DNA of 64,000 nucleotides, taken from Moniliella sp. 'wahieum'. Its lineage: Eukaryota. Position 1 is the stretch's first letter, and each line of letters opens with the position of its first letter. Below are positions 5,197-55,500 of this stretch, one piece after another. The stretch is taken from NCBI GenBank assembly GCA_003971905.1, contig RSEE01000008.1, positions 372,001 to 436,000 of the forward strand, read 5' to 3'. The position numbers were made by a program, and so were the translations under genes. The notes beneath the pieces were generated by a model, which saw only the letters and a list, made by a program, of their open reading frames with translations, was not told the DNA's origin and searched no databases.

Positions 5197-5739
5197 CGAC
5201 AACCAAGATTGAGTATAAGGGAAGATGGTGGGGGGAAGATGTGGGGCAGCTGTTCGGCTACCAATAGCCGCCTCTGCGGCGCTGGAAGTGGCACGATCTT
5301 CTTCCTGCCCACTCCGCTGGAGTCGGTGCGTGCGTCGGTGGGTCAGGCCGATCACCGGTCACCGGTCAGGCCGGCCAGGCGCCCCTCAGGCCATGTATGC
5401 ACTACCTTGAAATTTGGATCGTCCCTCCCGAGACGTTTATTCTAGGGGCCCATTAGTAACGGGTTATCGGCTACCTGTCGCCGACACCAACACTCCTTCC
5501 ACTGACAAGTTTCGCGTTACGGTACAGGCAGTGATTATCTCTCATTTGCAACCCAGTGGGCTGCTCCGGGTAGATGAACCACAGGCCGTCAAGACGTTAC
5601 GATAAGAGGAGGGGGAGGGGAGGGGAGGGGAGTTGAAAATGATCGCATAAAGGTCGATGGAGTACGAGATACGGATGCGCAATAGCTACGCTGTGCGCAA
5701 AAATCAGAAGACTTCAGTTGTCCTGTATATACGCCCAAA

Positions 5740-7001: not shown

Positions 7002-8458
7002 GGTGGGTAGACGGAGAACTGTGGGCGAGGGTGTGGGTGTGGGCTGGGGCTGGGGGGAGGTGGTGGTGCACGGCAGGAAGGAAGGAGAGGATGGGCGGGG
7101 CAGGTTGGCTCGTGCGAATGCCGGACGCTGTGTTAAAAAGAGACCAGGCGCGCGGCAATCACCCATGCTCGATCATCGATGTCAGTACTCAGTATGGGGG
7201 CGGTGGTGCGCGTCAAGCGTCAATTCCATAGAAGCTCACTAGTCACTTCATGAAAGCTCAAGGTGGGGTAAAGGCGCCTGTGCGTTGTGCCGGGGTCTGC
7301 GTCCGCCCCAGCGAGCCTGGGCGCATGAGGGGAGTCCCAGTGCGGGTGAGGACGCTCGTACAAGACGGCTCTTGTGGCCGGTTTTCGATTATCGACACTA
7401 TCGCTGAGCGATCAGGCTGACCTGCTTGCCCCAAAATTGAGTGGGGACGAGGGTGTGTGGGTGGGAGCAGCCTGGCCGCTCCCTTCCCTATGTCTAACCT
7501 CCCACAGACTGAGAGGAAGAGCAAAGCGTCCGCCTTGGTGCTTGAAGCTTGTCAAGCGCTCAGGCTGAGCAGCCCCCGACTCAAACAGGACCTAGTCGCT
7601 CAGCCACAGCGGGCAACCTGGCGCAGCTGTCAACTTGAACGTTAAACCCAACATTGAAGGAAGTGTGTGAATCGGCCTGGCACGGCCTGCTCTTCGGCGC
7701 TGCTCGGCCACAGTCCAAGGGACATCAGCTCATCGTGTTCAGGAGGCATAGCCGCTGGCTCAGCCGCCCATGACAGGGCGCCAGCGTTGCGCGTGAAAAG
7801 GGCACGGCACCCGTGGTTGCCCCATCAGAACATTGAATCCCCTTGGCCCATAGGCGGCCACAGAAGCAGGTGGCTAGTGGGGCCTGGGGCCATTTATAAA
7901 CACGATGTCAAGGGATTGGCCTTTCCGAACTTGTACGATTTTGGCGGCTGGTAGCCACCAACCATCGATGATCGACATCGCTCATTCGATCGGCCCTACT
8001 TGCTGACCTAACCATCGATGCAGGGAGGGAGTATCGATCATCGATCATCGATCGATCATCATCGAGCAACACATCATGCGTCATATATTGCGGTGTGGGA
8101 TGCGTGATGTGGGATGCGTGACGCGTGACATCTGGCATGCTGACATGGCTGACATGTGATACATCAGGCATCATGCATCATGCATCATCGATTATCCTCT
8201 GCTTGGGCCTTTGCCTGCACCCACAAGGCGTTTTAGCAAGCCGAATGGATTCGTACGAATACTTTCATCGCACTCCATCTCGTACAGCAGTCATCATACC
8301 GCCCTCTACGTTGGTCACGCCAAAGGTGCCATAGCACTTGACGCTGGTGCGTTCGCAAGCGTGCATGTATGCAACAGAATGATGTATCGATTCATTAGGG
8401 AGGGCCAGCCGAGCCGACCAGAAGAGAGGAACGGCAGCGCGCTTCATTCCAATCCATG

Positions 8459-11400: not shown

Positions 11401-11470
11401 GGTTGGTCAGTAGGTCCACGCCGTCAGACGGCGCGACGACGGTGTAGGCTGCCGCCTCGGAGGTAGCCAT
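8459..11470 (-). CDS. SEC26: Coatomer subunit beta (beta-COP), frameshifted
   Basis: [98 protein letters not shown]. Confidence 0.97.
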
Positions 11471-16216: not shown

Positions 16217-16802
16217 GGCGGGGCGGCAAGAGACGGGGCCGCCAGACGTCGGCGGCGGAGAGCAGAAGGGCGAAGGCGATGGGGAGGGCGGAGGGCGGTC
16301 GCTGGGGCGCTTGAAGGCTGCCTGCGGCGCACCGGTGTGGGCCGCTCGCGCGCTCAGAGACAGCGGCACAAATTGGCAACACCCGGCCTTCGTCGCATCT
16401 CAGACGGTGATCGGAGCCTCTCCCAACACGCGCACCGCCGCCAAAGCCCCCGGCCGCCCCTGCCGCGGCCCGCCACCAGCGCCCCACGTGGCCACTGCCG
16501 TGGTGCGGCTCCGGCACTCACCGGTGGCACTCACCGGTCAGCCGACGCCCCCCGTGTCGCATGTCACATGTCACATGTCACATGGCCTATGCCCCTAGTC
16601 ACTAGTGCAGTCACGCGTCATGCAGTCACTAGTCATGCGTCATGCAGTCATGCGTCACTCTCGGCGGACGCCGCTGTACACCGATTGAAATGTGCACGTT
16701 CCATCGCCATCCTGTATTCCGCCCGCCCCCCGCGCCCATCCCACCACTTCCGCCTCATGCCAGGCCCGCAGTGCCCCACCGCCACCACCTTGCTGCTCTG
16801 CC

Positions 16803-17758: not shown

Positions 17759-18230
17759 GTCCCTTTTCTTGCATTATAGCGAAGCTTTATGTCACCAGAC
17801 CTTCTCACGAGGTCTCGCGGCAATCCCCAGCAATTCTAGCCGTCCGTCACCGCATTGGTGAGCATTGTATACTTACATTTTTCATTATCTTAACGACCGT
17901 GTGAGCTTTGTATCTACCTCGAGATGTTCCCCCACGTCAAGCTGGAAGAGCTGGCCGGAACGAATAAAACGCGAGAGCAGCCTCAAGCCCCGATAGCTGA
18001 TAGCTGAGAGGAGATCTGAGAGAGATGAGATTTAGATGGAATCGATGATTTCAGACGATCAGTGATTGATGAACTGAGGTGTGGGTGTTATGTCAGCATC
18101 TGACTTTCGTTCGTCACGCGTCAGTGTTTCTTCAAGGACTGCTGCTACTCCACCAACTCAGCTCTGACCTGGACTGCCGGGCTGGCTGGCCAGTGTAGGT
18201 GTGCTCTTTGTACGGTGGTTGAGCAGCCCA

Positions 18231-19976: not shown

Positions 19977-20802
19977 CCTTACCTCATATGTATTCTATTA
20001 GCCCACATGTTGGCAAAAGCGTCATACTATAGTAACCTTCTCCTGTAATAGCCCTCGTCCTTCTTACCACCAACGCCTATTTCTCGCCTGCGATTGATCG
20101 TCTACGCTACTATCCTATACGCTTCAGTATGCATTGCAGGAGTCCCCATAACCGGGCGGATCAGGATGTGGCTACGCTCTCCCACTGCTGTATAGGGCCC
20201 CAGCGATCCTTGGCTCGAATCCCATTACTTCTTGGCTTCGACAGCGTTCAGCCATTGGCGAGATCCACAATGGCCTTGGATCTGGGAGACGACTATATTT
20301 CCTGAGGCAGTTGTATCTACACTGGAGACCCATGGCCCACACACACTACCTAATCACCCCAGTGGTATCTCGTCCTCTCCCCTTCCAACCAAGTCTCGCT
20401 TCAACCTATCGCCAGCCCGCAATATGTCACACTGACTACGTTGCTGTGTTCTAAGTTCAATCATTCAACACGATCGCTCTCTGGCTCAGTGATCACTGGA
20501 GCGGGTGTCGCTAAGCAAACTACCAGCCAAACACGACTTGACCAAAAATGAAGGATCGTAGGGCGGGCGAGATGAATCAGCGGTAACACGCAGCCGGTCA
20601 GCGGCAGCAGAAGCGAGCTAGACACTGTCCCAGTGCCGGTATCAAATGTGCGAGCAACCTGCTGAGTCCGCACTGGGCCAGAGTTCCGCTAGATGATGCC
20701 CCTCCCTTCCATGTCAGCGTCAGGCAGTGTGTGTAGTCTCTGTTGGCCATTTTCGTATACCACAGTAGGTATAGGCATCTCACCCCCCACCACACCACCT
20801 CA

Positions 20803-23800
20803 ATGCCGCCCACCATGACTGGCTCGGACCTGGTGCTTGGACCCGATGCCGCTGATGGTGTCGTCACCACTCTGCAGCAGCGTTTCGCGCCGACCAACCG
20901 TACTCAGCCTGGGCGCCCACCCTGGTCAGCGCCAACCCGCTCCGCATCTTGGCCAACCTCAACGACGCATCGGCCGAGACATACCGCACCCACACCTATG
21001 AAAATGCCAATTGGGAGAGGGATGGTCGCGACCAGCCGACATCCTTCCCCGCACCCGTATGAACTAGCTGCGCGCGTGTACCACTCAATGCGTCGCAAGC
21101 GCCAGTCCCAAGCTTTGCTCTACACGTGCGTATATCTCTCTTTTCATGCCTTGTTCACGTATTATAGGGCTTCTATTAACTCTTAAACTGATACAACAGT
21201 GGTATAAGTGATTCGGGCAAATCGTTTCTCTCCAAACTGGTCCAGAACCAACTGCTGCGCCTTGCACCCACATCTCGCCCTGGGAAACTCCTGGCGGAAA
21301 ACCTGCAACACGCAGATCAGATTCTTACAGCCTTCGGCCATGCCAAGACGAAAGGAAACTCGAACGCGTCACGCTTTAGCCGGTATACCGAACTGCACTA
21401 TGACACGGCTGGAAACACAACTGGAGCACGTATCTTCACATTTGGCCTCGACAGGTCTCGGGTAATTAGCTTACCCTCGTGAGGAACGTACGTTTCATGT
21501 GTTTTACCAGCTCGTCTCAGGAGCCACCCATGAAGAGAGGGAGATGCTTCGTTTGGACGACACCTCTCCTACCAGCTTTTTAACTCCTCTCGGTGCTATC
21601 GGTACGTCTCCTCATTCAGATTATCGGAACGCCGCATATGCTAACTTTTCTGTGTTCTCTCACACAGTCTCCCGGGTGGTCCATACAGTGATGACTCCTT
21701 ATGATGGACTCACTCCGTGTAGCCATGTTTGACATTGGATTCAAGCCCAAACATATTGTCTCCATATTCTCCGTCTTGTCTGCCCTTCTGGCGCTGGGCA
21801 ACATGAATTCGGAGACCAAATGGCTTCGACGCGACCTTTGAAGCGGCCCATGTGCTTAATCCAGACACACTGGCCAACGCTGCGGACCTCCTTGGGGTAG
21901 AAAAAGAAGTCTGGCCCAACCCTCACCACCCGTACTCGATGTGTCAAGAAAGAAGTCATCACTTCTCTAATGAACGCAAGCGGTTCATCGAAGCAACGCG
22001 ATACTTTGACGCGCGACGTGTATGCCACCCTGTTTGCTTTCATCGTCGAGACGGTCAACCACAAAATTGCTCCTCCTGAAACGGTAGACTCATCAAGGTT
22101 ATTGCAGCCCTCGACATCCCGGGATTTGCCTCAAACGAGGGACACTCCCTCTTCGAGTACTTCCCCCTTGGCTTTGAAGACCTTTGCAACAACCTTTTAT
22201 CCGAGATGCTGTTCAATGGTGTTAACCACTCGTGAGTTTGAAGATTCAGCCAACCCTCCACCCGGGAAATGGTAGACGACGACGTCATCTACTCAAGTCA
22301 TTCCTTCGGAAAATGGTGCGGTTGTAGAACTCCTCCGAGGAACAGTGGTGGGCAAATCGGCGGATACCGTCGTCGGGCTGCTTGGTGTCCTTGACCGCGC
22401 CGGCGCAAAAATCCGCATGGGCAAGTTGAATGAGGAGGATGATTTTCCTCTCGGCCGATTTGGATACGTTTGCCTATCAACCTCGTACATCTCAACACAG
22501 GCCATATATGCATCTTCAAGCAAGCGGAACCAGTTCGGGGTGCGGCACTACCAAAACCCCTGTGTATACTCTGTCGACCATTTCTGGCCTCCGACACGGC
22601 TTCATTTGACGCGGGCCTTGTCTCCCTCCTCCGCCATTCTCGCAACCCCTTCATTGCCCGTTTGTTTTCCGGCCCGAGTCTCGCGATTGAGACCCACCCC
22701 TTGGATGATTCGGTCATTGTCGGAGCTCAGGTTAGTGCCCGGCCACTGCGGCCCATTACGTCGTTAGGCAACCAGCGTACCCGTATGGGCGGTGAAAAGG
22801 TCGAGTCATATCTCAGCTCTGATAAGATATACGGCGTATCTCGGCAGCTCGATGCTACCCTGGTCGAAATCATTGATGCCATCGAGGTGGCAGGCACAGT
22901 TTGGTCCGTCCTCTGTCTCCGAGCCAACGAGTTATCTCAACCCAACGCATTCGACTCTACATTGGTTCGTTCTCAGGTTGCCTCACTGAACATCCCCGAA
23001 CTGATTGTGCGGAAGCAAGTGGAGTACTTTGCGGGCTTCCAACTGCACGAATTTTGCCGTCGCTATGGCAACTTTGTTGCACCAATTGCAGCTGCTGCTG
23101 GTGCTGATAATGCCCGTGGAGAAATACAGGCCTTGGCCATCGCCAACGCTTGGCAACATGGCCCTGATTACACGCTGGGTAAGAGCCAAGTATGGCTCTC
23201 GTATGCTACTTGGCGCAAGCTGGAAGACCGATTGCGTGTCATTGAGAACGAAGCCGACCCATCGGAATCCCCAAGGAGGAGACTTTGGGAGACGAGAGAA
23301 CCTCTGAGGAGCTGCCTCACAAAGAGAACCAAAACCGGATGGGCGAAGAGTATCCCCCTTCTCAGGGTGCTACCCTGTCGGATAATCTGGAATATGGTGG
23401 ACCAGGCCCGCCAGTCGAGCGAGTGAATAACTTGAATATGCCTATTCCCAAGTGGGGACAGGAGGCATATGATGATGCTAATATGGACTTCATGGGCCCC
23501 GCCGAAAGGGGAGGCGACTCGAAGGAAACCGTTGGACTCGGTGGTGATGGACAGTGAGGAGGTGAGCACACCCGTCGGGTGTGGAAGGGAGTGGTTTGGG
23601 GTTTGACGTGTTGGATCCCCAACGTTTTGATTACTACTTTCTCACACATCCACCGTCCGGACGTGATGTTTGCCTTCCGGGAAAAGGTGGCTATCTTCAT
23701 TTTGATTCTCATTGCCAACGGTCTCGTACTATTTTACATCATCGGTGTCGGCGAGATCGTGGTCCAGAGTACAACAAGGTTTGGGACTCAGGGCAGCTGA

Positions 23801-26800
23801 CAGAACATGCGAGTTCAAACAATTTTTGGGTTGCTGTGGCGGGCAACGTTTATGATTTAACCAAGTTCTACAAGGGGTCCCACTCAGGATCACCTAGTTA
23901 CTTCAGCATGACCGACGACGAGAAACTTGGTTACTTTGGGGGAAAAGACTTGACACTCTATTTTCCTGTGCCCTTTACATGGGCTGTCCTGGCCTGGTGA
24001 CAGACAAAGGGTTAGAGCTCACCTACAGTGTCAACTCTACTCAAATCATCGAGGAGGTTCCGGGGCAGGTGATCCACAAGTCCGGCGCCAGCAAGACGAC
24101 AAGGGGATTGCCCTAGCTTCGGATGATTGGTACCCCAACTCCTTTGTGCCAACGATGAAAAAGTACTACAAGGGCGGCTTCGTTTACGCTAAGAAGGACT
24201 TTGCCTCGCAAGGTAGCTACAGAAACTGGGTCTCTGTCGACAACAGCATCTACGATTTGACCGACTATATCAACTCCCAGTCACAGGCGGCCAATGCAAG
24301 CCAATGGAGCTGGATCAACCCCAGCCTGGTGAACCTATTCCGCAACCAGGGTGGCTCAGACGTGACCAAAGATTTTAAGAGCACTCTTTCATCAATGCCC
24401 AAGCTCGAGCAGACACAAACATGAACTGCCTCCAAAAGACGTTCTATGTCGGCAAGATAGACCCTCGGGAAACCCCGCGCTGCATGGTCCAAAACTACAT
24501 CCTCTCTCCTTCTCGGCTGTAATCATGCTGATCATGCTGAGCCGCTTCGTTGCAGCGTTGCAACTCACTCCCAAGCGCCTTCCGGAGCAACAAGACAAGT
24601 TTGTGGTCTGTCAAGTCCCATGCTACACCGAAGATGAGACAGCATCCGCAAGACAATTGACTCCATACGGCTCTGAAGTCGACAAGCGCAAGCCTTTTGT
24701 CATTTGTGACGGCATGATTGTTGGTTCAGGCAACGACGCCCCCACTCCCGAATTGTGCTCGACATTCTGGGAGTTGACAGTCGTGTTGATCCCGAACCGT
24801 TGCCTTTCAAGTCAATCGCTGAGGGAAGCAAGCAGCTCAACTTTGCCAAGGTTTACTCAGGGCTGTATGAGTTTGACGGTCATGTAGTACCATACATCGT
24901 AACTGTCAAGGTAGGCCGTCCCTCGGAGCGTGCCCGACCAGGAAACCGGGGCAAGCGCGACACCCAGATCCTTTTGATGAGCTGGCTCAATCGTGTCCAC
25001 TTTGATGCGCCCATGAGTCCACTCCAGCTTGAATTGACCCATCAATGCAAGAACGTGATTGGGATCGACCCCGCCTTTTACGAGTATGTCCTGACCGTGG
25101 ATGCCGATACGCGAGTACGAGAAGACTCGCTCAATCGTCTGGTTGCGGTCGCGGTAGATGACTCCAAGGTTGTCGCTCTCTGCGGCGAAACGATGCTGGA
25201 CAACGAGGAGAGTAGCTGGTGGACAATGATCCAAGTGTACGAGTACTACATTTCCCACCACTTGGCCAAAGCATTCGAGTCTATTTTTAACTCTGTGACC
25301 TGCTTACCGGGGTGCTTCACCATCTACCGCATCCGGTCAGCTGATAAGGGGAAGCCCCTGTTTATCTCCTCAAGGGTTATTGAAGAGTACAGTGAGAATA
25401 AAGTTGACACGCTTCACAAGAAAAACCTGTTCTCGCTGGGGGAAGATCGGTACCTGACTACTCTTCTCCTCAAGAACTTTCCCTCATTCAAGACCAAGTT
25501 CACCTCGGACGCCAAGTCTCTTACCTCTGCTCCAGACAGATGGGGAATCCTTCTCTCTCAGCGGCGTCGTTGGATTAATTCTACGGTACACAACCTGGCG
25601 GAGCTATCAACTATGGAAGAAATGTGTGGATTCTGTCTCATTTCCATGCGATTTGTTGTCTTCATCGACCTGGTTGGCACCATCATTCTCCCCTCGACAG
25701 TCGTGTATCTCATCTACATGATTTACATGGCTTCCACAAAGAGGGCTGCTGTACCTTATATCTCCATCGCCCTTATCGCAGCCACCTACGGTCTACAGAT
25801 CATTATTTTTCTTCTCAAGCGCCAGTGGCAGTACATTGGCTGGATGTTCATTTATGTGCGTGTTTATCTCCATTGCTGGTATAAACCATAAGAACGTACA
25901 CATGACTGACACCTTTTCGTTCTGCTACAAAAAGTTGCTGGCTTATCCGCTCTGGTCCTTCTTCCTCCCGCTCTACTCTTTCTGGCACATGGATGACTTT
26001 TCCTGGGGAAACACTCGTGTTGTGGTTGGGGAGAAGGGGAACAGGAAGATTATCGCTGGCACCGACGACGAGCCGTATCACGATTCGATGATTCCACTGA
26101 AACGCTTCAGCGAGTACCAGAACGAGGTATGGGATCAAGGAAGCGCAGCCATCGACCCTGATGTCGAACTCAATAATGTACCTGACCCAGGCGAGCTAGG
26201 AAACCCCCTGATCACCTCTTCGAGACGAAGTTTGTTGAAGGGGTCGGTTAAACGATTCTCAGCCTTGGATGAAGGGTCGATGCACAAGGCCAGCTCTGTC
26301 TATTCCGATGAGGAGTCCAAGTACGATACAGGTGACTACTACCAAACTACCAATCTCCTGCAGCCTGCCCCTCCTAGCCAGAGTCACTTCTCGGGCTCTT
26401 ACACTGACGGAAAAAGGCAAGTGCCTACTGGGCCGACCCCGCCCCAGTGGCGTGTGCCTCCAACCGTGCCAATGAGGGAAACGACCTTCGGATCATCAGG
26501 ATACGGCGTTCCACTTCAGGGATCGATGTACAGTCTCCCAGCCCCCATGCCATGTACAGTCTCCCCAGTATGGGGGCGATGCGTGCCAACCCTACCAGCC
26601 CGATGGCTACTGGACAAATAAGCGGCGTGTCCCCAATGGCTAACCCAACAACCTCAGGATTCGGGGGTATGCAGACGCCCTCTGTTATCCCTGACCTCAC
26701 ACCTCAAGCACCCACAGGAGTACCCACCTCATCCCGCCCTGTTTCGATCAATCCCTACGCCGCCCCGGCCGTCCCCCTCCGCGCGAGAGACACCGCCAGC

Positions 26801-26984
26801 CCCTCGACGGGGGATCGTCGTAGCAGTCCAAGAGTACTTGGCGCAGCAGCCATCGCTGATGACCATTACCAAGCGTACTGCTCGTGAGGCCGTTATGGGG
26901 GCCTTCCCTAATGCCGTTTCTATCAAGGGAAAGAAGACTCTCATCAATCAGGCGATCGACGACACACTCCGAGGCAAGTGTTGA
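20803..26984 (+). CDS. Chitin synthase with N-terminal myosin motor-like domain (class V-like), cytochrome b5-like and DEK_C domains; heavily frameshifted
   Basis: Myosin-like [11 protein letters not shown]-loop-like GISDSGKS (~21201), [27 protein letters not shown] motifs [45 protein letters not shown]-terminal [15 protein letters not shown]...GKC* (TGA 26982-26984). Confidence 0.95.
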
Positions 26985-27539: not shown

Positions 27540-28530
27540 ACCTGAGGCGCCGCGCTGAGAGGGATATGAGGATCTGAGAGAGAAACTGAGCTTGAGGCCT
27601 GTGAGGCCGAGGCCTGAGGGAGGCCTCAGGCCTCAGGTCTGATTGAGAGGTTACGCGTTACGGCTGCTGTTTTTGAGAGAGGGCTTTTCTGCGGAACTGA
27701 TCGCGATGCTCGCCTAAACACCAGGCTACTGGTAGAGCAGTAGCGTTTGAAGCTTGAAGCCGGCTTGAGGTGTGTGGAGATCGTAGAAAGTTCGGTTTTG
27801 AGTTCAAAGTAAAGTACGTATATATACACGGTGAGTTCGGGCTCGGCGCTCAGGCTGAGCAGCCTTTTTAGATCTTAGGCCTTAGGCCTTAGGCCCTGAT
27901 TGCTGAGGCTCAGCCTGAGCCGCCAAGCCCCAAAGCCCCAAAGCCCCAAGCGACGTCGTCAACGCGTCAACGCGTCAACGTCGTCATCGTATTAGGGTAC
28001 GTAGGCAGAGCACACTACTTAGCGAACTTATCCGTCGGCAATTACTAGTTACTAGGGTTAGATCTTAAGATCTTCGATCTTATTAGATCGTTTGTGGATT
28101 CTCGGACTGGATGTTAGACAGGGCCAACGCTAAAAAGCTCAAAGATGCAGACTGAGTTACTGAGTGGCTAGTGGAAATGACTGGTGCCTAGCGACTAGGT
28201 GACTAGGTGACCGGTGACTAGCGATGGCCGAGTGATCGATGATCGATGTCGATGACTATTCGATCAGAGACTGATCTCTCGCAGATCGTCTCAGAACTCT
28301 AAGATCTAATCATCCGATCGACAATCTTAGATCGTAGATCTCACAGCTTAATAGGCGAGAGGTACGTACGTTAGGAATAACGCACTTCCTGTTTCGGAAA
28401 TGGGGGGGCAACCTCCGCCTGGTTAATCACCGGTCACCGAGGTAATGCGACTGGGGCATCGCGCAGCTTTTAGGCTTTACGCGTTACGCCTTTCGCTTTA
28501 CCCGCGTTATTACCGGTTACCGGTTACCAT
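27540..28530. repeat. Dense cluster of 7-bp-period TNA-[4-bp palindrome] micro-arrays
   Basis: e.g. TTA-GATC-TTA-GGCC-TTA-GGCC-TTA-GGCC 27868-27895; TTA-CTAG-TTA-CTAG 28042; TTA-CCGG-TTA-CCGG-TTA 28510; TTA-CGCG-TTA 27651. Confidence 0.85.
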
Positions 28531-28922
28531 ATAGCAGGGGGTACTTTGGTTATCTACTCACATGATGTGTCACACATCTCACACCACATATATCTATCCT
28601 CGGCCTCAGGCCTCATTGCAGGCCCCCCCAGCCCTCCCCCCAACCCCGTTCCCTTGGTTTTTCCCCACATCCATATCCTGCCGTCACGCTCTTTCGGCCA
28701 CAGCACCAAGTCGTTTCCTTCATTAACATATTGGAGCAGCGCTTTCTGTTTATCGAATCAGCCTCTCTCCTCATTACCACCATCCAAATACACAGTCTCT
28801 CCCCGCTTCCAGTTTTCTCATCCAGGGTGAGTACTCTCCCCCACCTTGTGGTTACTGCCACCTGACGGAATGTTGACCGGAAAGGTTCTCCACTGCCCCA
28901 CTACATCAGAAGTTATTGAACC

Positions 28923-31083
28923 ATGACGGAAACCGTTCCCCCTCTTCCTCCCATCAGTATGTCGGAGCGAGCTCTGAACATGGCAATGACCCCACCACCC
29001 CCTCCGCCTAAGAAGAGAACAAGCTTGCTGCGTCGTGCTTCGACCCGGATACGCATGTCTCTCTTCAGCCAGTCTAGTCAAACCCAACAGCTTACCGAGC
29101 CACCCCAGGTTCAACAGGATGAAGGTTCTGCAGCTCCTGGGGTGGGAATAATGTCTTCCCTCGGTCGAGGTAGCCGACACTATTGGCACAACCATCGCCG
29201 GCCAAATACCCTGTTGGCCACGGAAAGCAGCGCAATTGGCCCCCGCGAGATGAGCGTTCTGGATGCGATGGCCGAAAGCTCTTCAAGATCTTTCCTCATG
29301 CTCCCACCTCCCCTCCCTTTGGATGCAAAGGCAAGCAGGTCGGCTTCTTCCTTCACAAGTGACGGCCTTCCCATTCCTCCTCTTGGGTTGGAGAGCAGCT
29401 CATCATACTCTGGTCCGGGAACGCCGCTATCTTGTCAGATGCTTACTCCAACGTCTACCCAATGGACTGGATATGATATGGAAGATGAGTGCACACCCTC
29501 AGCCATCACGCTACCAATGCCCTCTACCCACCATCTCATACTGAGTTGCTAAAAGCACCATTGGGGGGGTACCCGCTAGCACTTCCCATCAACAGCAAAT
29601 GTTTGGGTCCCTCTTCCCAAAATTCGCTGGGACTGCTTCCCAATTTATCTCCGACGAACAGGCACATGCTGTCTCGAGGAAACAGCGAACAAGGCAGAGT
29701 TTCCTTTCTCTCGGAGAACAAAAAGGAATCTGTTGAAGCCTGCAATGAAGTCCACGAGCAGCCCTCTTTTCGCGCACCCAATGCAAAGATGCAAACACAT
29801 ATCCTCTCGCCTGGGTCAAACTTGGATCAGCTCTATGCATTACCTCTTTTACTGGCAAAGCAATCCCGCGCACCACAAGATACTCCTCCCTCCTTGTCCA
29901 AGGGGACTGATTTTTATCTCCATCTACAAACACCTGAGAAGGGCAACCTTAAGGAAGGAGAGAAAACGCAACAATGGTCCGAAGCTGCCTCCCGTCCCTT
30001 GTGTAATAATGCTTCATCCGATCCACACTACTTGACATCTTTTTCAGCGTTGTCGGACGACACGTTTCCTGCTTTATCACGTCCACCGCCCAAGATTTCG
30101 CACCCATCTGAAGTAGCAGACGACTTGCATGACCGCAACAGCATCCGCCATGTCAGTCGAGGGTGGAGCGATTGTTTCTCTGACTTCGATGGGAGCCCCA
30201 CATTGTTACCGTCAAGTCACGGAAGTGTCATGCGGCCTTTTTGCAATAATGAGTGCGAACCCGACAGTGGTCTTGCATCGATGCGAGCACAAGTATCAGA
30301 AGAACCATCGGTCGAGGCATGGTCCAACAAGGAGGCGTTCGATGCGGAAGAGCAGGCGGCCATTGCTCATGCTCGCAACGAAACCCTGAAGAAACTCATT
30401 GGTTACAAAGCAGGCCCAGTACTGCGCAAGTCACCATCTTCATCCGTGACCCCCAACCACTCCTCTCATATGGATTCCTCCACAAGAACCTATCATCTAT
30501 GCTGACCGTACACCAGGTTCCCCTTCATGGAAAATGCTTTTGTCCACGTTGGCGTCTCCGATTCCTGACTCATCTGATGCCATGGATTCCGGGGAGGTCC
30601 GTGTTCAAGAGCACTTACCGACCATCGCGCCAGGGCCCTCACTTGCTCGTCTGCGGCTTTCCCATCGTTCACTATCCAAGACTACTGCAGGGGCAGGAGC
30701 GATGGGAGAGTTCCCCGACCGGCCCTTGGTGCTTGGCTCACCATTTGGTTCACCCTAATGCACGCCTTTGGTCTGCACGCCTACAATATGCCCTGCTCAT
30801 CCTAAGGCGGCCATCCGGCTCAATTGACCGCCGTCCCCACCTCTGCATCAGGGGTTACTTATCCGCTCCTACCTTACGGACAGAGGGACATAATATGAAT
30901 TTCACTTCAAGTCCTTCTGCCGGCTATGAAAGCAACCCTCCCGCTTATATGCCATGCGCCTTGGTTACTCTCGCTGTACTAGACTCTTTCCCATCCGTGT
31001 CTCCTCCCCCACGCTTTCCCTACCATTCCCGTCTTATCTCCAGCCTCTCTCTCGACCAAGACATCTTGTTGATTATACAATAA
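28923..31083 (+). CDS. Hypothetical Ser/Pro-rich, likely disordered protein (overlapping ORFs joined by frameshifts)
   Basis: Successive + ORFs 28923..29552, 29489..30505, 30534..30758, ..31083 with similar composition; no recognisable domain. Confidence 0.5.
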
Positions 31084-32656: not shown

Positions 32657-32756
32657 AGATGTGCATCCGCCTGGCTGCGCCCACCTGGAACGCGCCGGGT
32701 GGAACGTGCCAGGTGGCATGCTTGCGTAATTTTACGTAAAGAAAAAAACGGGGTCT

Positions 32757-33069
32757 CTTGAATTCATATCATTGACAGAGCTTAAGGCTGGGACAGGGGG
32801 AACGCTACGTCTAAACCGAACCGTTCATCTTGCGGGGGTTACTTGGAAGCGCCACTAAGGTCAAGGAACCAGGGGGATCGCCAGGATATCAGGACCCTCC
32901 GGCTCACGCCATCCGGTCCCGTACCTAGGAAGCGCGTGTGGACACGGATGAACGTGGTTGACATCCGAGCGAGGAACCATTTTCACTGAGACTTAGTAGC
33001 CAACTCCTTCCAATGCGTAAACAACTTGCCCGCTGTCTTGGTGCCGTAGTATCCTCGCGTCGTCAAAAC
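32757..33069 (-). mobile_element. Second, shorter copy of the same retroelement 3' end, inverted relative to copy 1
   Basis: Reverse complement of 32339-32650 with very few differences. Confidence 0.9.
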
Positions 33070-35660: not shown

Positions 35661-36174
35661 CTGTCCACCGTCCAAGCGCGACAGGGTGATCAATGCATTC
35701 ATAAATGTGCTGTGCTCTCGTCATCCCAATCAGCTGGTCATCGAGGAGACGATAGCAGCCCTTCTTCAAGGTACAGCCTGGCGCGGAGCGAAATGGACAA
35801 GGTGCAACGTTTTTGCAATGCACTCAGTATATGTGCCTTCCGCACGAGGCAAGATGCAATCACTCTTCGAACGGCACCGATACTGCGCACACATGAAGTC
35901 ACTATAGATGCACACAACGTAACCCTTGCGAAACGGCCATGTCGGCTCAGCTATTCACACAGCGTGCACGCTTCTCATGGTTTTTTTGTGGTGGTCAGTA
36001 CTCAGTGGCGACGGCTAACCCGCTCACATCAATCATCTGGGGTGGGCGAATGCCCGACAGAGACAATCCGTATACACCTGAACTGATAAGCTGGAGAAAT
36101 TGGATACAGATTGTCTACTGTGAAGAGTACTACGACAAAATTGTCATATAATGTGTTTCTGACCATAAAGTACT

Positions 36175-41451: not shown

Positions 41452-41760
41452 TGTGCGAGTGGGTTGGGAGCGGTGCGTAGCGGAGGTGGAAAGGTACCGG
41501 CGAAGGAGTTGAGGGAACGGAAGACGTGAAGGGAGGCTGGAGGTGGCCCTGAGAGGCGGGAGGGTTTAAATACCATGGCGGTGCTTACATAGGGTGCGCA
41601 TGGGGGCAGTAGGCTTGGGAAGCATGCGCTTATGAATGGCTTATGCCCGAGCCAAGCTGCCGGTTCGCACTCGGGACGCTTTTGGGGCAACGCAGGGCAA
41701 CGCCCCCGTGCGGCGTCACAGCATCACCGCTCCCTGTCCGGTGACCTCGCCAGTCACTAG

Positions 41761-42198
41761 TCACTGCGCCACTAGGTCATCGGCGAAGTCACCGGTCGTC
41801 CACTGTGCATCCCGTTCCGGTTCTACTTGGTCCGGCCCCGACGCCACCCCCTCCAGGCAGGATGCAGCAGGGGCCAGCCTTGCTTCCGCTGCCTTCCAGC
41901 GTTCCACCCTCTCTTCTCGTGCGTTCGTCTCCGTTCGACTACGTCCAACGTTGCGGCCTGAGGCGCAATGCTCAACGTTCTCGCTTCCACGGGGTAAGTG
42001 CGCGTCTACCGGTATCGTTGCTCTGTCGCATCCATCGGCGAAGAGGGGTGCTTTGTTACGTGCAGCGAGCATACGGAGCAGGCCCGGCTTTTGCCGTTCA
42101 TAACGGGGTTTTGGCTCCAGTCCTGCGAGCATGCCCTCATCGATCTCATCGGTATCCACGAAGGAAGAGGGGATTGCCCCCCCCAGTGCCGTCGCCAT
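41761..42198 (-). CDS. Hypothetical 145-aa protein
   Basis: ATG-initiated uninterrupted ORF preceded by a pyrimidine-rich leader; natural-looking charged composition; no recognised domain. Confidence 0.4.
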   Translation of the reverse strand: MATALGGAIPSSFVDTDEIDEGMLAGLEPKPRYERQKPGLLRMLAARNKAPLFADGCDRATIPVDAHLPRGSENVEHCASGRNVGRSRTETNAREERVERWKAAEARLAPAASCLEGVASGPDQVEPERDAQWTTGDFADDLVAQ

Positions 42199-43063
42199 GA
42201 TTGCAAGGGAGTTGGAAGAAGCAGGCGAGAAGACATGGACTCCTTGCGTTAGACATCGCTACAAAAACGTGGCGTGAACGTTGAACGTTGAGTAGTGGAA
42301 CGTGTTGAGCCTAGTAGGGCATGTAAGCGAGTGCAGACGCATTCGTGTTGAATGCGACCCTAACGTAACGGGAGTGCCACCAAACCCAAGCGCCCTCTGC
42401 GTCCGCGCCACCAGGCGAGGTCCGCTTGCTGTCCGCCCCCAAACACCATTGCCCATCACGGCCGGGAGGACGAGTATGACTACCTCAACGACTCTTTCGA
42501 AGCACGCAGCGTCTCTCACCAGTCCGTCTCTCATTATCCCACGCGCCCGCACCATATCCTTCTGCGCCACGATCCTTCCGCAGCGGCGTGCGCATATAGC
42601 CCAGCTACAGCCGGTTCCTGCAGTGGACAGAAAAGCGGGCACCTGGGTGTATCGGCATTCGAGGCAACAATCTTTTGTTTTCAACAGCTGATGAGAAAGA
42701 GGGAAAGTGTGTTTGCTGTGCTACTACTACCCCCCGCACTGTTAATGTCTGTGAAGAATTGTAACTTGTTGACGTGGGGATTATGCAGCGCTTCCTATAA
42801 CGTTTCCAAATGCGCCCAACCTTCCCCTATGCGGCAATAGTTTCATATAGTGTCCAATGTAGGTGGCTTCCAGTAGAAGCAGAAACAGGAAGAGAGACAG
42901 GATGCTGTCTGACGATAGAAAAAGTGAATTAGGACCACAATAACACAAGTGTCCCGCGGAGGGTTCCGCATCCAACGGCCTGAGACCTGAAGGAGAGCCA
43001 GGGCGACAAAAGAAAGTTTTGAGATGCACGGTAACAGACGACGATCGGCAATTTAAAGCCCAC

Positions 43064-44321: not shown

Positions 44322-46906
44322 GCGGGGCAAAAGAGTTGGTGGTGGGTGGGAAGCAGACGCGTGCGCAGCTGGCCGGATGGGCTTCTTTTAATGGGGCTAC
44401 ATACTGCGCGGCGCTGCCGATCAGCGGCGGGGATGCAGGATGCCGGTCGGCCGCTGAGCCGGGCGGCCGCTGAGCTCAGCAAACACTGCCCGACTGGGGG
44501 GCGCACCAGACAGGCCCCGAGGGGTGGTGCATGCTGTGACGTTGTGGCATGCAATGGGCTGGTGCTGGGGGGGGCGGCAGCCGGCTGCCACACTAGCATG
44601 CACTGGCATGTACTCAGTAACTCGGTACTCACAACTGACATGTCACAGCAACGCCTAATGCTTGCAGGATGCATGGTGGGCAATATGCAATCCTCATCAT
44701 CGACATCATCGACATCATCGATCATCTGAACAGCGACCAGCGATCATCGATCAGATCGATCACCAGGATTACCCAGGTTGGGAGTCCTCACCAAATCAAC
44801 CAGTCAAGCTAGTCACCAGAAACGGGCAACGAGTAACGTTTAACGTTTAACGACTATCGATTAGGGTCGAGTAAATGACACAGAATCGCACGCACCGCTA
44901 GGGTACACGAACCACACGGCAACGCCTGTCGAACGCCGGGAGATGGAGCAGCATCGACTATTGAAGCAAGGGGAAAACGACAACAACGCCAAGTATACCA
45001 TCAGCCACGCACTCATCAGGAACCGTTCCTCCTGTCGTAGTGCATAATGTTGAGATCAATAAACGCACGCGGGCAAACTAGGCCGCCATGACGCCAAGAA
45101 GATGTTTGAGCTCTGGACGAAATTATATTGAGGGTACCGAGTACCGAGCAATGAAGCCTGAAGCGAAGCTTGAAGCTTAAAGCTTGAAGGCCGAGGGGTC
45201 TTCGCATCATCCATTACATCACGCCTCACCTGGCCACCCTCATCCACTCGCGCATTTTCGGTTTGGAAGCGATTGGGGGTAGCCGGTAGCCAGAGGGACT
45301 TATTGGCCTGTTAGCGAGACGCCATTGGTTTCCCAATAGGGTTATTGGCGCGTTGGCGCAAGCTAGCAACACATCCTGGATTGTAGCGTTTCTTAGTCCC
45401 TTCTGCCTTGCAAATGATATTGGATCTACCCTTCCCACAATCGGATGTAGCGCGACCCCGGAGACACGAATGTGCATCAGTGTGTGTGCCAGCCCAGTCA
45501 CTAGTCAGCCCTGTAACTTGTTTTCGAGTTGCCCTCACAAGTATAGCTCGCGGCATACCCCGTCCTCTGTCGCATTCATCGTGCTCGGAACAGTGGATCA
45601 TGAGACGGTGGGCGATACAACGGTGACATGGTGGTTACGTGGTTACCCTGACCTCAGTGTGGCCATGAGCCTTGTCGTCAACTAGTGCTATAGAACACGT
45701 CACACGTGGCATCGCGCGTGTGGTAAGGAACTGTAGCCAACTTGCAGTCTGTCTAAGGCCTACTGTGCCTCCCCTAAAAGGTGCTCTAAGTGGATACAGA
45801 AACGAGTGACAATCGCAAGGTGCTGGTAGGCATACTTTGAAAAGCTTGAAGAGCTTGAAGAGCTTCAAGCTCCACGACGGTTTCGCAACAAACGGGGTCC
45901 CCAAATGGGACCCAATTAGTCCATGCTTGACGTCGATCGGGAGTTTTGCCTAGACCACGACACCACCAGCCGTAATCATGCTTAGGTGTTGGGGTTCATG
46001 CGACGCTTGCCGTTGGGAGCCAGAGTGGCGTTCACAAAGCTACAATCCAGTCAGAATGGGTCCAACACAAACGAGAAGCGCAAAAAGGGAATGATACGCA
46101 CCGGCGCGTGTAAAGCAGGCGCTTCTTAGCGCGGCCCTTGGGCAGCTTCTTCTTCTCTTGAGGCTCAACCTTGGGAGTCTGGCCCTTGACCTTACCGGCA
46201 CGCGCGAGGGAACCGTGAACCTTACCCCTGTTTTAAGATAGGTCAGTATACCGCTATTCGAAAGCCAAAGGAGGGTGGGAGCAGGGGGAATGGTGCAGGC
46301 GGCAATCCCAAGTTGCAGCCACGCAATTTCCAAAGGGAACAGCAAGCAACAAGGGTAGCTGCAACGCCAGACTCCCCGCCGGGGAGAGACGTACATGTTG
46401 ATGGACTTGCTAAGGCAATCTGGTGGTTAGTCAAAGCACTGTGGCAACTAGCTGAGCCGAGTCAAATACACGAGCAATAGGGTTTGGGCGTTTTTTTTCT
46501 GCAGAGCAAATGAGCTGCGGTAATAACCCTACTAATTTACGCCATCGCGTCTTGGATCATCGATCACGACCACTTCGGAAATCGCTGATTTCCGCTGTCG
46601 ACTGCTGATTTAAAGTACCTGTGCGGACCCAAACTACCGAACCTATTTGCGAGCTCTTCAGTTTCTGTCCATCTGCAGGCAACCGCGCTTGACCTGTATC
46701 TTGTGCACGTGAGCTCAGACGGGACGTTGCCTACTATCTATATATCACACAGGATAATCCTGTTGGTCCGGTTTGACAAAAAAAGTACAGTCCGTAGGCC
46801 ATTTGGCCAGAGGCGGGGCGGGGGGGGGGGAGGATGTCGGGAAGAGAAGTAAACGAAAGGAAGAGAACATGCCCAGGAAACGTTATTTGTCGTCTAATGC
46901 ACACGA

Positions 46907-52500: not shown

Positions 52501-55500
52501 GAAGCTATCATCTGTCACTACAGTACAGTCAAGAGAGGGGAAGAGAGTGCATCATGTCAATTTTTTCTCCGGGGTGGAAGGGGGGATGAAGTACGTGAGG
52601 TCGTGAAGCCAGAGCAGACGGATCAGGGTAACGTGAAAGGAGGGGTGTAATAGACATCCCTCGAGGGGGGAAAAGTGGTATCTGAGGAGGGTGAAGATGG
52701 GGCTTTAGTACGTTTCCGGAGTAGAAGGTTCCGGCGTCTATCGCCAAGAGACGATTCGGCCATCTTTTCATCCTCCACTTTCTCCTCGCCAATCTTCTCC
52801 ATGTCCGCGGCAGTCACGAGAGTGGCAACCTCGCCCTTAACCAAAGCACGGCGCGAAGTGAAGCCAGGAGGGCACCACGTGCGGCTGTTCCAGGGCTTGC
52901 AGCTCGGGTCGTGGTACATCAAGTCGACTTGCTCAAGAGTAAGCCCCTGAGTCTCCGGACGAAGAAGAAGACGAGGAGAGCGTTGACAATGTTCCAGGAA
53001 GCAAAGATGAAACCGTAGGCTGCGAATGCAAGAGGTCAGCGCGGGATCGATACAACCAGAGCCCAACAAACATCAGGAGAAATATGCGTACCATAGCCAA
53101 TATTGCCCGTAATGGGCTGCGTGAAGAATGCCAAAGCAAAGTTCCAGGCCCAATTGGTGGCTGTCGAAAGGGCGGCTTGCTTGGAACGAGTGCGCGCGCC
53201 AAAGTTCTCGCCGCACCAGACCCACACGGCAGGAGACCATGTGCAAGCAAGGCAGAAGACAAAGAAGCAGCCAGCAACGGTCATCAGATCACCCACTCCC
53301 TTGGAGAGGTGGGGCTGACCCATCACACCGCTCTCGTTACCAGCGACACCCGCGATGGCAAAGACGAACAGCCACAGGGAGCATCCAAGCGCGCCATAGA
53401 AGAGCGTGTTGCGGCGACCCCATGCTTCCACCATCCACAGACCAGGGGCAGTGCAGACAAAGTTGACCGCGCCAAGAATGATTTGAGTCACGTACGAGTC
53501 CTTGAGGCCGGCGTTGGCAAATACCTGGTTGCCATAGAAGAAGAAATCTGGGGAGAAGAAAAAGAGTCAGGAAGGAGCGGTCGGGAAGAGGTGGGAGTGT
53601 AACGTACAGTTGCCGCCACAGAGTTGCTGCCCCATCTGAAGCGCCATGCCCATGCACGTCCGGAAGCAAGTCGAGTTTTCGAATTTGAAGCAGTCAGCCC
53701 ACGTTGCGTCGGCGGCGTTGGCAGCTTTTTCCTCCTCGATATGCTGGATCAGGTCCTGGTACTCCGATTCGACGTGCGGGTCCTGGTCCGCAACGCTCAC
53801 ACCATGCATCTGGGCGATCGCCCTCTTCGCTTCATCGTACCGGCCTTTTTGTACGCTAATGGTGGGCGACTCGGGCGTCAGCATCGCAACTGCGCCTTGA
53901 AGCATGGCAAACACAAAGCCGATCGCAACCAATACTCGCCACGATGCCGAATCGTTGTTGCCAGCGTACCGCGTACCGATGGCAATGGCGTAGGCCAACA
54001 GAATGCCAAGGGTAATCGCAAACTGGAAGAAGCCGCCCATCATACCACGGATTTGCCGGGGCATGAGTTCGGATTGATACACTGGCGCAAGGGCGGAGGA
54101 CATGCCAATGCCGTAGCCAGATACCAAACGGCCAATGCCAAATTGAACCCAGGAGTGGACAGAGGCGACCTTGATGATGCAACCGATGATGATCCACAGA
54201 GCTGACACCTGGACACTGTACTTTGTGCCCAGGCGGTTTTGCCAGATGTTGCCCGTAAGAGCGCCAATGCCACAGCCGATCGACATGAAACCAGTGATCA
54301 GGCCCTGGAGCCAAGGCGACCAGGCCTTCTCATACTTCCCGTCGGGGTAAGTGACCGCCCCGTAGCAAACCGGCGTTGGAAATCTTGCATGGGGTACAAA
54401 CCAGCCATAATGCCGGTCTCATAGCCAAACTGTTGTCATGAAAATAACAGCGATCAGTATGGGATGTTCTTCATTTGGTGCACGAATGAGGGGGAGACAT
54501 GGACATACGTTAAGACCGGCACCGATGGTCACCAGGGTTACCAGGTGAACCATAATGCCGATAGAAGTGCCTCCGAGTTTCATGGTGAAGCCGAAGAACT
54601 AGTGGTAAGGAAATAGGAGCGCGGAAAGAGTAGGAGTGTGTGAACCTCAAAGAGGTGGGCGTGTGGCTGGTATAATAGCCTGTAGGGTGTGGGTTGGTTA
54701 CTGAGAAGACGGAGGAGAGATGTTGTGGACAAGAAGAACAATCGATGGGGTCGGTGGTCCTCTGTTATATACCCCAAAGATGTATAACACAAGAGAGAAG
54801 ACTAGGCGCCAAGAAGCCAGTGTAGGAACAAGCACAACAGTACAGGAACAATTCCAACTGTTGCATGGGGGAACTTTTGCCAGCCACGCGGGTCATCCAT
54901 CAGTCGACCAGCGGTGCTGCTTCATGCATCATGCATCATGACCATTCCATATTCATCTCAGGCTCTTGATCCCCTGTGAGAGACATGTGACATGTGACAT
55001 GTGAGGCCTGAGATCTGGCGATCAGTCGATCAGGAGAAGAAGGCAAAGGCCTAAGGCCTACCGCATAACAGTAACCCCCCCCTCCACTCTGTACGCAACG
55101 TTCACAAAATGCTTAATGCAGCGCGCCCTCCCTGCGATTGCAGGCTGTTCCTCTGCGAGAGCTATACACAAACGCCGTCCCAGACAGCACTGCGACTTCG
55201 ATGCGAGTGCGCAGTGTGGGGGCTATGGACAGCCATACGGAGCCCCAGGGAGCCCCACTATTATGCTCTAGGTCCCAGACACGCAAAGCCTCTTGCCTCT
55301 GCCCACAATATAGCCGCCATGTTTCAGGTAATCAAATGTCTATAGGCTCTAGGCACGAGGCCTGAGGCCGGCCTGAGGTCTTTCCGGACTTTGCCGGCGG
55401 TACGTATGTTTCTAGTGTGAGTGATATAATAGTCTCGGCCGCACTTCTGTCACGCTCCCGTCTGACCAGTGTCCATATGTAGCCCGTTGTTCGGCTTAGG

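Follow-up and report, generated by a model that had tools for sequence, protein, structure and literature searches.

Excision footprints of transposons and tandem heptamer repeats are the described systems closest to a class of short arrays found in a 64,000-nucleotide stretch of contig RSEE01000008.1 of Moniliella sp. 'wahieum' (positions 372,001 to 436,000; this whole stretch is hereafter the window, and coordinates count from its first letter). The arrays are built from 7-bp units, each consisting of a T-N-A trinucleotide plus a 4-bp palindrome, written here as TNA and XYY'X', with Y'X' the reverse complement of XY. Footprints of mariner and Stowaway elements (Tc1/mariner) are similar in having a short palindromic filler between direct repeats of the target, a small net insertion and an accumulation in non-coding DNA. 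However, the target duplicated by these elements is TA and not TNA, and their filler is formed by the tips of one element, whereas in the window it can be any of 12 palindromes matching the local flank and the increment is fixed at 7 bp.

A second group of relatives is provided by the PIF/Harbinger superfamily (PHIS), which resembles the arrays in using T-N-A with any middle base, in its 3-nt stagger, in favouring DNA near genes and in occurring in basidiomycetes. PHIS elements are described as duplicating TNA or TWA: PIF/Harbinger elements use TWA, and NuwaII elements, whose terminal inverted repeats (TIRs) start with GG and whose hosts include two basidiomycetes, use C-TNA-G (PMC4482050). 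For mPing, any middle base is reported to be tolerated and modelled staggered cleavage of the target site duplication (TSD) gives 3-nt 5' overhangs (PMC4561436). PIF/Harbinger is also listed in the core set of fungal DNA transposons (PMC5751038). A difference is that the characterised members leave no scar, with 109 of 110 mPing excisions in yeast reported as precise (PMC2836001), and the mPing footprints that these reports describe arose only with mismatched TSDs (PMC2836001; PMC4561436).

Three further systems share some part of the structure. The hairpin footprints of hAT elements (Ac/Ds) and of V(D)J recombination contain palindromic bases templated by the flank, and TNAXY-Y'X'-TNAXY can be read as a direct repeat plus two P nucleotides; those footprints vary in length, whereas the arrays have a fixed period and a repeat that starts at T-N-A. 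Bacterial heptanucleotide arrays (cyanobacterial STRR and related heptamer-armed hairpins) are also period-7 tandem units in intergenic DNA, but their units are not individually palindromic, follow no TNA rule, and occur in longer arrays and inverted pairs. Micro- and minisatellites share the exact tandem copies and the steep fall-off in copy number (here 33, 7 and 3 chains of one, two and three units), and differ from the arrays in the strict sequence grammar, the predominance of fewer than two full copies and the truncated-spacer variants seen here. No description of TNA-plus-palindrome heptamer arrays was found by full-text literature searches screened mainly through listings and abstracts.

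Grammar and specificity of the heptamer units

Counting TNA + 4-bp palindrome + TNA, we found 63 instances in the window, 56 with the same N on both sides of the core and 7 with a different N; for non-palindromic 4-nt cores, the corresponding numbers were 49 and 70. The same-N palindromic form was expected 2.4 times under a third-order Markov null (40 simulations), and a block-wise second-order null gave 2.48 +/- 1.22 with a maximum of 7 (60 simulations). A sequence-only reading of this DNA had drawn attention to the kilobase at 27540-28530 as being packed with such units, and this kilobase contains 15 same-N units against 0.20 expected (maximum of 2 in 1000 simulations). All of the examples it had picked out, at 27868-27895, 27626, 27651, 28477, 27748, 28042, 28208 and 28510, are present, and its view of the TNA as a duplicated target is supported, as the two copies are the same in 56 of 63 instances against about 32% expected from the null.

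The grammar is highly specific. Among 48 combinations of 16 trinucleotide classes and three palindromic core lengths (2, 4 and 6 bp), only TNA with a 4-bp core stands out. The runner-up classes with 4-bp palindromes reached 9 against 3.6 and 9 against 5.7 expected, and TNA with the other core lengths gave 12 against 7.1 (2 bp) and 1 against 0.6 (6 bp). Exact period-7 tandem runs of at least two copies numbered 34 against 4.0 expected; in 24 of these the heptamer was maximally reverse-complement symmetric (0.43 expected), and every one of the 24 had T and A beside its odd centre. Identical TNAs spaced by exactly 4 nt occurred 105 times against 33.9 +/- 6.1. When the structure was scored as a 5-mer, the reverse complement of its last two bases and the same 5-mer again ([abcde][e'd'][abcde]), 62 instances started with TNA against 0.4 expected, and every other class had 7 or fewer.

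In a tandem array of TNA + XYY'X', each period contains two dyad axes, which pass through N and through the midpoint of the core. Palindromes of odd length with TNA at the centre were enriched for arms of up to 6 bp (27 against 3.4), and those centred on ANT, CNG or GNC were at expectation. The whole excess of TNA-centred palindromes falls inside period-7 runs: longer ones outside such runs were not enriched, nor were single 7-bp palindromes centred on TNA (192 against 177.6 +/- 13.3). The units are therefore found only as repeats, which argues that sequence was added and not that a motif was selected.

The 56 same-N units form 43 chains (33 single, 7 double and 3 triple), in which all four N are used: TCA in 25 chains, TGA in 10, TTA in 7 and TAA in 1. 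Twelve of the 16 possible cores occur, namely GGCC (10), CCGG and CATG (7 each), TCGA and TGCA (6 each), CTAG and CGCG (5 each), GATC and ACGT (3 each), GTAC (2), and ATAT and AGCT (1 each); AATT, TTAA, TATA and GCGC are not represented among the 56 units. Compared with the dinucleotides that follow TNA outside the arrays, this spectrum deviates by no more than about 2.5-fold (chi-square 34 on 15 degrees of freedom, computed over units that are not all independent).

A half-core, the 2 nt expected from the adjoining palindrome, lies directly outside the outermost TNA in 37 of the 43 chains (right only in 16, left only in 16, both sides in 5, neither in 6), where chance would give about 12%. 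Among the 33 single-unit chains, the period-7 match extends to 12 nt in 9, 13 nt in 9 and 14 nt in 7, so that 25 form runs of 12 to 14 nt, and bare 10-mers number only 3. Grammar-conform period-7 runs of at least 11 nt total 62, with about 2.5 eleven-mers, 0.55 twelve-mers and almost no longer runs expected by chance. The commonest phase class, TNAXY(Y'X'TNAXY)k, starts at T and ends mid-core; it accounts for 12 of the 62 runs, including 9 of the 14 twelve-mers and 3 of the 4 nineteen-mers. The next outer base of the 12-mers matches the repeat in 2 of 9 cases, which is the chance rate. One half of the palindrome looks like ordinary flank and the other like an inverted copy of that flank. If the palindrome is copied from the flank, the diversity of cores needs no diversity of transposon families; the sequence-only reading had taken many families, or a novel enzyme or repair route, to be required, and the near-background core spectrum does not support the demand for families.

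Core and trinucleotide behave differently from one unit to the next. Across a core, the two TNAs were the same in 56 cases, complementary in 2 (2.25 expected) and otherwise different in 5 (2.85 expected), giving 7 with a different N against 5.1 expected. Across a TNA, the two palindromes were the same in 35 cases (0.6 expected) and different in 17 (9.7 expected). New cores beside an unchanged TNA do therefore occur, modestly, and changes of TNA beside an unchanged core do not. That the core may change while the TNA stays constant, as had been claimed, holds for a minority only: mixed cores are present in 3 of the 10 multi-unit chains, and two of these three are copies within one inverted duplication.

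Variants of the unit are also present. Spacers can be truncated or partly doubled (GGCC-TG-TGA-GGCC, GGCC-GA-GGCC, TCGA-CA-TCA-TCGA and TCGA-TG-TCGA), some units are 8 or 9 bp long, and 8-bp palindromic cores occur (AGCCGGCT, GGCCGGCC and TCGATCGA). The truncated and doubled spacers and the 8- and 9-bp units look like end-joining products. Identical palindromes lie 3 nt apart 76 times against 15.3 expected, and 4 and 5 nt apart 26 and 24 times against about 14-15.

The arrays are intergenic, in agreement with the sequence-only reading. None of the 56 same-N units lies wholly within the Pfam-supported open reading frames (ORFs), which cover 25,783 nt, and two straddle ORF ends; outside these ORFs, the density is 1.47 units per kb.

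A proposed process of break and repair at TNA and its rivals

The observation of the sequence-only reading is thus confirmed and its interpretation partly supported: the arrays look like serial scars. Our preferred but tentative reading, which we hold at clearly less than an even chance, is that they are mutational scars, neither genes nor binding sites, left by repeated staggered breakage at TNA and an imprecise templated repair that adds 7 bp. A break would be made across TNA with a 3-nt stagger, by a cutter whose target and cleavage geometry is that of the PHIS DDE transposases, either as an element excises or in abortive cuts. To our knowledge, PHIS transposases are the sole eukaryotic activity with TNA specificity. 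Imprecise repair would keep both TNA copies, and synthesis of a few nucleotides from the neighbouring flank, templated or by fold-back, would close the gap. The product would be TNAXY-Y'X'-TNAXY, that is, TNA + palindrome XYY'X' + TNA, with exactly 7 bp gained per event. In one possible path, one end would pair at TNA and copy XY in trans, the other would fold back on its own T..A and copy Y'X', and the ends would be joined blunt. Replication slippage or unequal exchange could later add or remove whole units, and purifying selection against +7-bp frameshifts would restrict the arrays to spacers. Flank-templated synthesis would make the cores palindromic and yet of almost any sequence, and, as each event would leave two identical TNA targets, successive hits would build short arrays in which the TNA is constant. 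What is shown is the grammar, its specificity, the restriction to spacers and the half-core derived from the flank; we infer from one genome the insertion over other histories, and likewise the break, the enzyme and the route of repair.

Several results weigh against breakage and repair at TNA. No single simple repair path could be derived, and the path sketched above needs two separate 2-nt syntheses. The plain fill-in product, abutting TNATNA, was not enriched (49 against 51.7). Of 124 run ends, 31 fall at T, where a uniform spread would give 14%, a moderate preference only; run lengths are spread over 10-14 nt, so that TNAXY + Y'X' is the mode and not a rule; and there are more 14-mers than expected if 12-mers were extended by chance (7 against about 2.6). 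A candidate cutter is likewise missing from the window: no transposase Pfam domain was found in 162 ORFs, and of 35 candidate elements with inverted 9-mers between 3-bp direct repeats, only 3 had TNA flanks, which is no enrichment, the TIRs of these three being at most 13 nt long. TIR elements with a TNA TSD, which the sequence-only reading had led one to look for, were not found in the window. The Ustilaginomycotina are described as compact, repeat-poor and transposable element (TE)-poor (PMC5751038). Moreover, the excision characterised for this superfamily, as in the yeast events with mPing (PMC2836001), is precise, and an imprecise repair route is not documented for it.

A number of other routes were considered and rejected. 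Hairpin-capped or fold-back replication should give perfect palindromes with complementary N, and these were at expectation (2 against 2.25). P nucleotides added to a 3-bp TNA duplication would produce T-N'-N'-A cores, which are not palindromic and were not seen. Decay of perfect 14-mers by one substitution fits the length classes, but the outer bases of the 12-mers are random, and decay is rejected for these. If a 7-bp target were duplicated where a symmetric heptamer already existed, runs should extend from the middle of one core to the middle of another, which holds for only 1 of 8 fourteen-mers. A weak excess, partly in coding DNA, was seen for snap-back products that have a 2-nt spacer (10 against 4.3). 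A dispersed repeat (31894-33069 and 57717-58481) was considered as a TNA transposon and rejected, with no TIR or TSD seen on inspection. This repeat, at 31894-32660, 32759-33069 and 57717-58481, is 97-98% identical between its sites and has no Pfam match; at the first site, a second, inverted copy of its last ~310 nt lies 109 nt away. The repeat could be a retroelement end.

An origin without any nuclease, in which quasi-palindromic heptamers are a 7-bp microsatellite class prone to slippage or hairpin-mediated expansion in neutral spacers, is unlikely, though less so than the other rivals. In many arrays the unit is repeated exactly, up to 3.6 times; the exact head-to-tail runs and the identical TNAs spaced by 4 nt both reflect a strict period of 7; and run phases occupy all seven positions. 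Hairpin-coil transitions allow palindromic repeats to expand readily in vitro, and the arrays can fold with TNA as a 3-nt loop. However, the predicted hairpins are weak: four arrays folded as single-stranded DNA gave -3.3 to -6.1 kcal/mol (z -0.4 to -1.6), leaving hairpin-driven slippage alone weakly grounded. Among the folded arrays only the TGAGGCC/TCAGGCC junction forms a strong hairpin, the two orientations at 27593-27642 pairing in an 11-bp stem (-18.8 kcal/mol, z -4.6). Heptamers centred on CNG, GNC or ANT show no excess, although C:G would be more stable, so hairpin stability cannot explain the T.A rule. All 24 symmetric units are centred on TNA, whereas slippage should give birth to repeats regardless of grammar, and the single units that should be its precursors are not enriched. 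Most instances have fewer than two full copies (12- and 13-nt runs make up 9 + 9 of 33), and slippage cannot create 12-mers with random outer bases. Neither new palindromic cores beside an unchanged TNA nor truncated and doubled spacers are predicted by it. The earlier judgement that simple slippage is insufficient thus stands, the T.A rule and the mixed cores being left unexplained.

The sequence-only reading itself had proposed a mariner-style excision footprint, in which each unit is a TNA TSD plus 2 nt from each inverted end of an element, with repeated hits stacked on one another and, in this form, many families behind the core diversity. We consider this improbable. The direct duplication of TNA (56 against 2.4) agrees with it, as does the TSD-palindrome-TSD architecture, which is that of mariner and Stowaway footprints that keep both the TSDs and the TIR ends (PMC4561436). 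The 8-bp cores share their outer dinucleotides with neighbouring 4-bp cores (AGCT with AGCCGGCT, GGCC with GGCCGGCC, TCGA with TCGATCGA), as expected if 2+2 or 4+4 terminal bases were left, and elements such as NuwaII, with the C-TNA-G targets and GG-starting TIRs described for it (PMC4482050), would yield the commonest core, GGCC (10 of 56). Transposon tips are nevertheless unsupported. They predict random flanks, yet 37 of 43 chains have the half-core outside the array; of the 33 single-unit chains 3 are bare 10-mers, and only two 17-mers have the phase T..A. Cores of 6 bp, formed by 3+3 bases, are absent (1 against 0.6). The use of 12 of 16 cores at near-background frequency would call for a dozen families in a lineage described as TE-poor (PMC5751038), excision of the PIF type is reported to be precise (PMC2836001), and no element was found in the window. 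What is supported in the proposal is a TNA that behaves like a duplicated target.

hAT elements make 8-bp duplications, and both hAT and Transib/RAG excise through flank hairpins. A footprint of this type, in which a 5-bp TNAXY duplication is joined through a flank hairpin opened 2 nt off-centre so that the P nucleotides Y'X' are added, is quite improbable. It is suggested by the modal structure, a 5-nt direct repeat plus the reverse complement of its last two bases, and by the presence of this inverted copy in 62 instances against 0.4 expected; Ac/Ds footprints are described as palindromes derived from flanking DNA through hairpins (PMC4561436). However, Transib, the sole superfamily with both 5-bp duplications and flank hairpins, is missing from the fungal repertoire surveyed (PMC5751038), and the direct repeat here is 5-7 nt at a fixed 7-nt spacing, against 8 bp for hAT. 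The target would be asymmetric, with T at position 1 and A at position 3 of 5, unlike the known symmetric targets. Hairpin opening should leave P nucleotides, in varying number, on both sides, yet the period is fixed at 7, and runs of 11, 13 and 14 nt are almost as frequent as the 12-mer.

Selection for cis-elements, either as arrays of dimeric transcription-factor sites or as frame-independent stop-codon traps with TGA/TAA or their complements every 7 nt, is very improbable. The arrays do lie in spacers, often just upstream of COX15, SDR, Avl9, PAP, pirin and sugar transporter genes, and TNA is seen directly in the sequence to be TAA or TGA or a reverse complement. Against this, 12 cores and all four N make no single motif, TAG-type spacers (TNG class) are not enriched (4 against 4.3), strand orientation relative to the neighbouring gene is mixed, and selection would yield neither palindromic cores nor the half-core rule. 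An assembly or sequencing artefact is scarcely credible: 1-nt indels between the arms of a 3.5-kb inverted duplication may indicate residual homopolymer errors, but such errors are unable to create arrays, and the arrays are complex, sequence-specific and of many kinds, avoid ORFs completely, are identical in both arms and obey the same grammar on an independent metagenome contig from a different basidiomycete class. Part of the probability is assigned to none of these readings.

Occurrence on other contigs and possible meaning

Metagenome contigs were scanned for (TNAGGCC)3, and at least 121 loci were found. The matches listed were mostly high-GC contigs with one array or bacterial heptamer arrays, and they look bacterial by G+C and ORFs. 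Among these listed matches, a second heptamer array with a palindromic core was present in 3 of 121 (L064, L027 and L095). L095 looks like a bacterial heptamer spacer between two apparently bacterial genes. L027 (1.5 kb) is fungal-looking by eye and has TCA-GGCC x3 and TCA-ATAT x2. L064 (12 kb) is fungal: its IDO ORF is 80% identical to that of Thelephora ganbajun, and the further named matches are agaricomycetes. Besides the seed array, L064 has two exact 14-nt runs, TGA-ACGT and TCA-AGCT; the null probability of two or more extra runs of at least 12 nt is 0.007, uncorrected for 69 loci, and exact 14-mers are far rarer. The three runs of L064 (5499-5512, 6000-6023 and 7124-7137) have three cores and share one ~2-kb spacer between the IDO gene and a fungal transcription-factor gene. 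Another contig (6042 nt, GC 0.62; L001) consists almost entirely of period-7 tandem runs with many different units, has 104 exact runs of at least two copies and resembles the bacterial heptamer-array elements.

These matches are suggestive that the grammar may reach beyond the present lineage within Basidiomycota, and its presence on the Thelephorales-like L064 hints at a process spanning two subphyla. It is possible, if rather doubtful, that spacers of basidiomycetes are written by an undescribed, self-propagating break-and-repair process at TNA, in which a templated 7-bp insertion makes the neighbouring dinucleotide palindromic and recreates the target. The cutter could be an active or domesticated PIF/Harbinger-like transposase or another enzyme, and promoters would gain diverse heptamer arrays with no transposon remaining.

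If the arrays are the scars of a TNA-specific cycle of breakage and repair, they would be a readable record of a mutational process that adds 7-bp steps to promoters and untranslated regions and makes its own hot spots. Such a process would bear on transposase activity in TE-poor fungi, on the birth of short tandem repeats and on the diversification of regulatory DNA. As the grammar is sharp, with one 12-mer form at 62 against 0.4, it can be counted in any genome, which makes its spread, its age and the enzyme testable. If the arrays are instead a slippage-prone repeat class, the unexplained T.A rule would be a new constraint on models of slippage.

Gene neighbourhood and coordinates of the arrays

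By Pfam matches on long ORFs, the window is a fungal nuclear region. The genes identified in this way include a chitin synthase with a myosin head, ERB1/BOP1, poly(A) polymerase, coatomer beta, Avl9, COX15 and sugar transporters. The ERB1 ORF (50240-52108) has best matches of 84% and 80% identity, the closest named one being from Tilletiaria anomala (60%) ahead of other Ustilaginomycotina, and on such protein similarity the source is judged to be a basidiomycete of the Ustilaginomycotina. The gene map rests on Pfam matches to ORFs, a codon-usage gene finder being too weak. The 162 ORFs scanned were 12 plus 150 of the 167 ORFs of at least 120 aa; the larger batch left out 17, namely the 12 of the first batch and 5 short, overlapping ORFs. 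In several conserved genes (coatomer beta, chitin synthase, A49 and a sugar transporter; 8462-11674, 20737-26981 and others), the coding sequence is divided between neighbouring ORFs that differ in frame. Short introns could account for this, but some splits may be assembly frameshifts, given the homopolymer indels.

The arrays of 27540-28530 sit in a spacer of ~1.9 kb between the chitin synthase gene, whose 3' end forms the boundary of the spacer, and the next plus-strand ORF. Elsewhere in the window, clusters are often just upstream of genes (COX15, short-chain dehydrogenase, Avl9, poly(A) polymerase, pirin and sugar transporters), and some are downstream (coatomer and an ITFG1-like gene). 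The coordinates are collected in the table.

Table. Heptamer arrays and genes flanking the array-rich kilobase, in window coordinates
Position	Strand	Feature	Basis
5352..5368	.	(TCACCGG) x2.4 at 5' end of COX15 gene (minus strand)	
7182..7247	.	TCA-GTAC-TCA-GTA and TCA-CTAG-TCA-CT, upstream of short-chain dehydrogenase gene (minus strand)	
8033..8190	.	Cluster: (ATCGATC) x3, TGA-CGCG-TGA, TGA-CATG-TGA, (GCATCAT) x3 ending TCA-TCGA-TTA	
16513..16660	.	Cluster upstream of Avl9 (minus strand): TCA-CCGG, (CATGTCA) x3.6, TCA with cores CTAG, CGCG, TGCA(G), TGCG	
17992..18123	.	GAT-AGCT x2.3 (near-grammar) and CG-TCA-CGCG-TCA, upstream of poly(A) polymerase gene	
20737..26981	+	Upstream neighbour of the kilobase: class V/VII-type chitin synthase (myosin-head, cytochrome b5, Chitin_synth_2 and DEK_C pieces)	Pfam
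22443-23423, 23566-23997, 24366-24884, 24710-25888, 25722-26618, 26622-26981	+	Pfam-matched ORFs of chitin synthase gene	Pfam
27593..27642	.	Degenerate (TGAGGCC)n running into (TCAGGCC)n, truncated spacers GGCC-TG-TGA-GGCC and GGCC-GA-GGCC	
27651..27662	.	TTA-CGCG-TTA-CG, single unit plus half-core	
27747..27772	.	TGA-AGCT-TGA-AGCCGGCT-TGA: 4-bp core, then 8-bp palindromic core, same TGA	
27868..27895	.	TTA-GATC-TTA-GGCC-TTA-GGCC-TTA-GGCC, mixed-core chain; exact CTTAGGC x3.1	
27957..27986	.	8-bp variant array (TCA-ACGCG) x3.6	
28042..28082	.	TTA-CTAG x2, then TTA-GATC-TTA and 8-bp variants (AGATCTTA)	
28178..28255	.	TGA-CTAG(G)/TGA-CCGG/TGA-CTAG array, then TGA-TCGA x2.3, one truncated spacer (TG)	
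28298..28309	.	TC-TAA-GATC-TAA, 12-mer of TNAXY-Y'X'-TNAXY form on minus strand	
28427..28439	.	TCA-CCGG-TCA-CCG	
28477..28489	.	TTA-CGCG-TTA-CGC	
28510..28528	.	(TTACCGG) x2.7, 19 nt = TNAXY + 2 x 7	
28602..28615	.	(GGCCTCA) x2, just past the end of the kilobase first noted	
28920..31080	+	Downstream neighbour of the kilobase: long ORFs without Pfam match	ORFs, Pfam
35995..36006	.	TCA-GTAC-TCA-GT	
41752..41765	.	AG-TCA-CTAG-TCA-CT	
42275..42291	.	(TGAACGT) x2.4	
44690..45189	.	Cluster: 9-bp variant CA-TCA-TCGA x3.4, TCA-TCGA-TCA, (TAACGTT) x2.7, (TGAAGCT) array with one TAA	
45496..45507	.	AG-TCA-CTAG-TCA	
46555..46566	.	GA-TCA-TCGA-TCA	
54918..55060	.	Cluster upstream of sugar-transporter gene: (TCATGCA) x2.7, (GACATGT) x3.3 into TGA-GGCC-TGA-GATC, (AAGGCCT) x2.1	
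55641..55672	.	(TCAGGCC) array x4.7, one deletion	
56307..56318	.	GA-TCA-TCGA-TCA	
59762..60518	.	Mirror copies of 54918-55672 in other inverted-duplication arm	

The 3.5-kb inverted duplication has its arms at 52540-56050 and 59380-62895 and encloses ~3.3 kb; both arms contain a sugar-transporter gene together with the heptamer arrays upstream of it. Nearly all differences between the arms are 1-nt indels, about a dozen in number and mostly beside an identical base, which could be residual homopolymer assembly errors or very recent divergence. When the arms were compared for +7-bp differences, the arrays were identical; those of the second arm are therefore not independent events.

Three smaller repeats were observed in addition. 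In the Avl9 cluster, at 16609-16658, a 22-bp higher-order unit, composed of three heptamer-type units that differ in their cores, is repeated 2.3 times, indicating that arrays also grow by larger duplications. The spacer downstream of the chitin synthase gene contains an exact 8-bp tandem repeat, (AAGCCCCA) x3.1 at 27925-27949, that lies outside the TNA-palindrome grammar. Finally, a run of 24 C with one interruption is present at 2984-3007, at the end of a Sld5-like ORF region.

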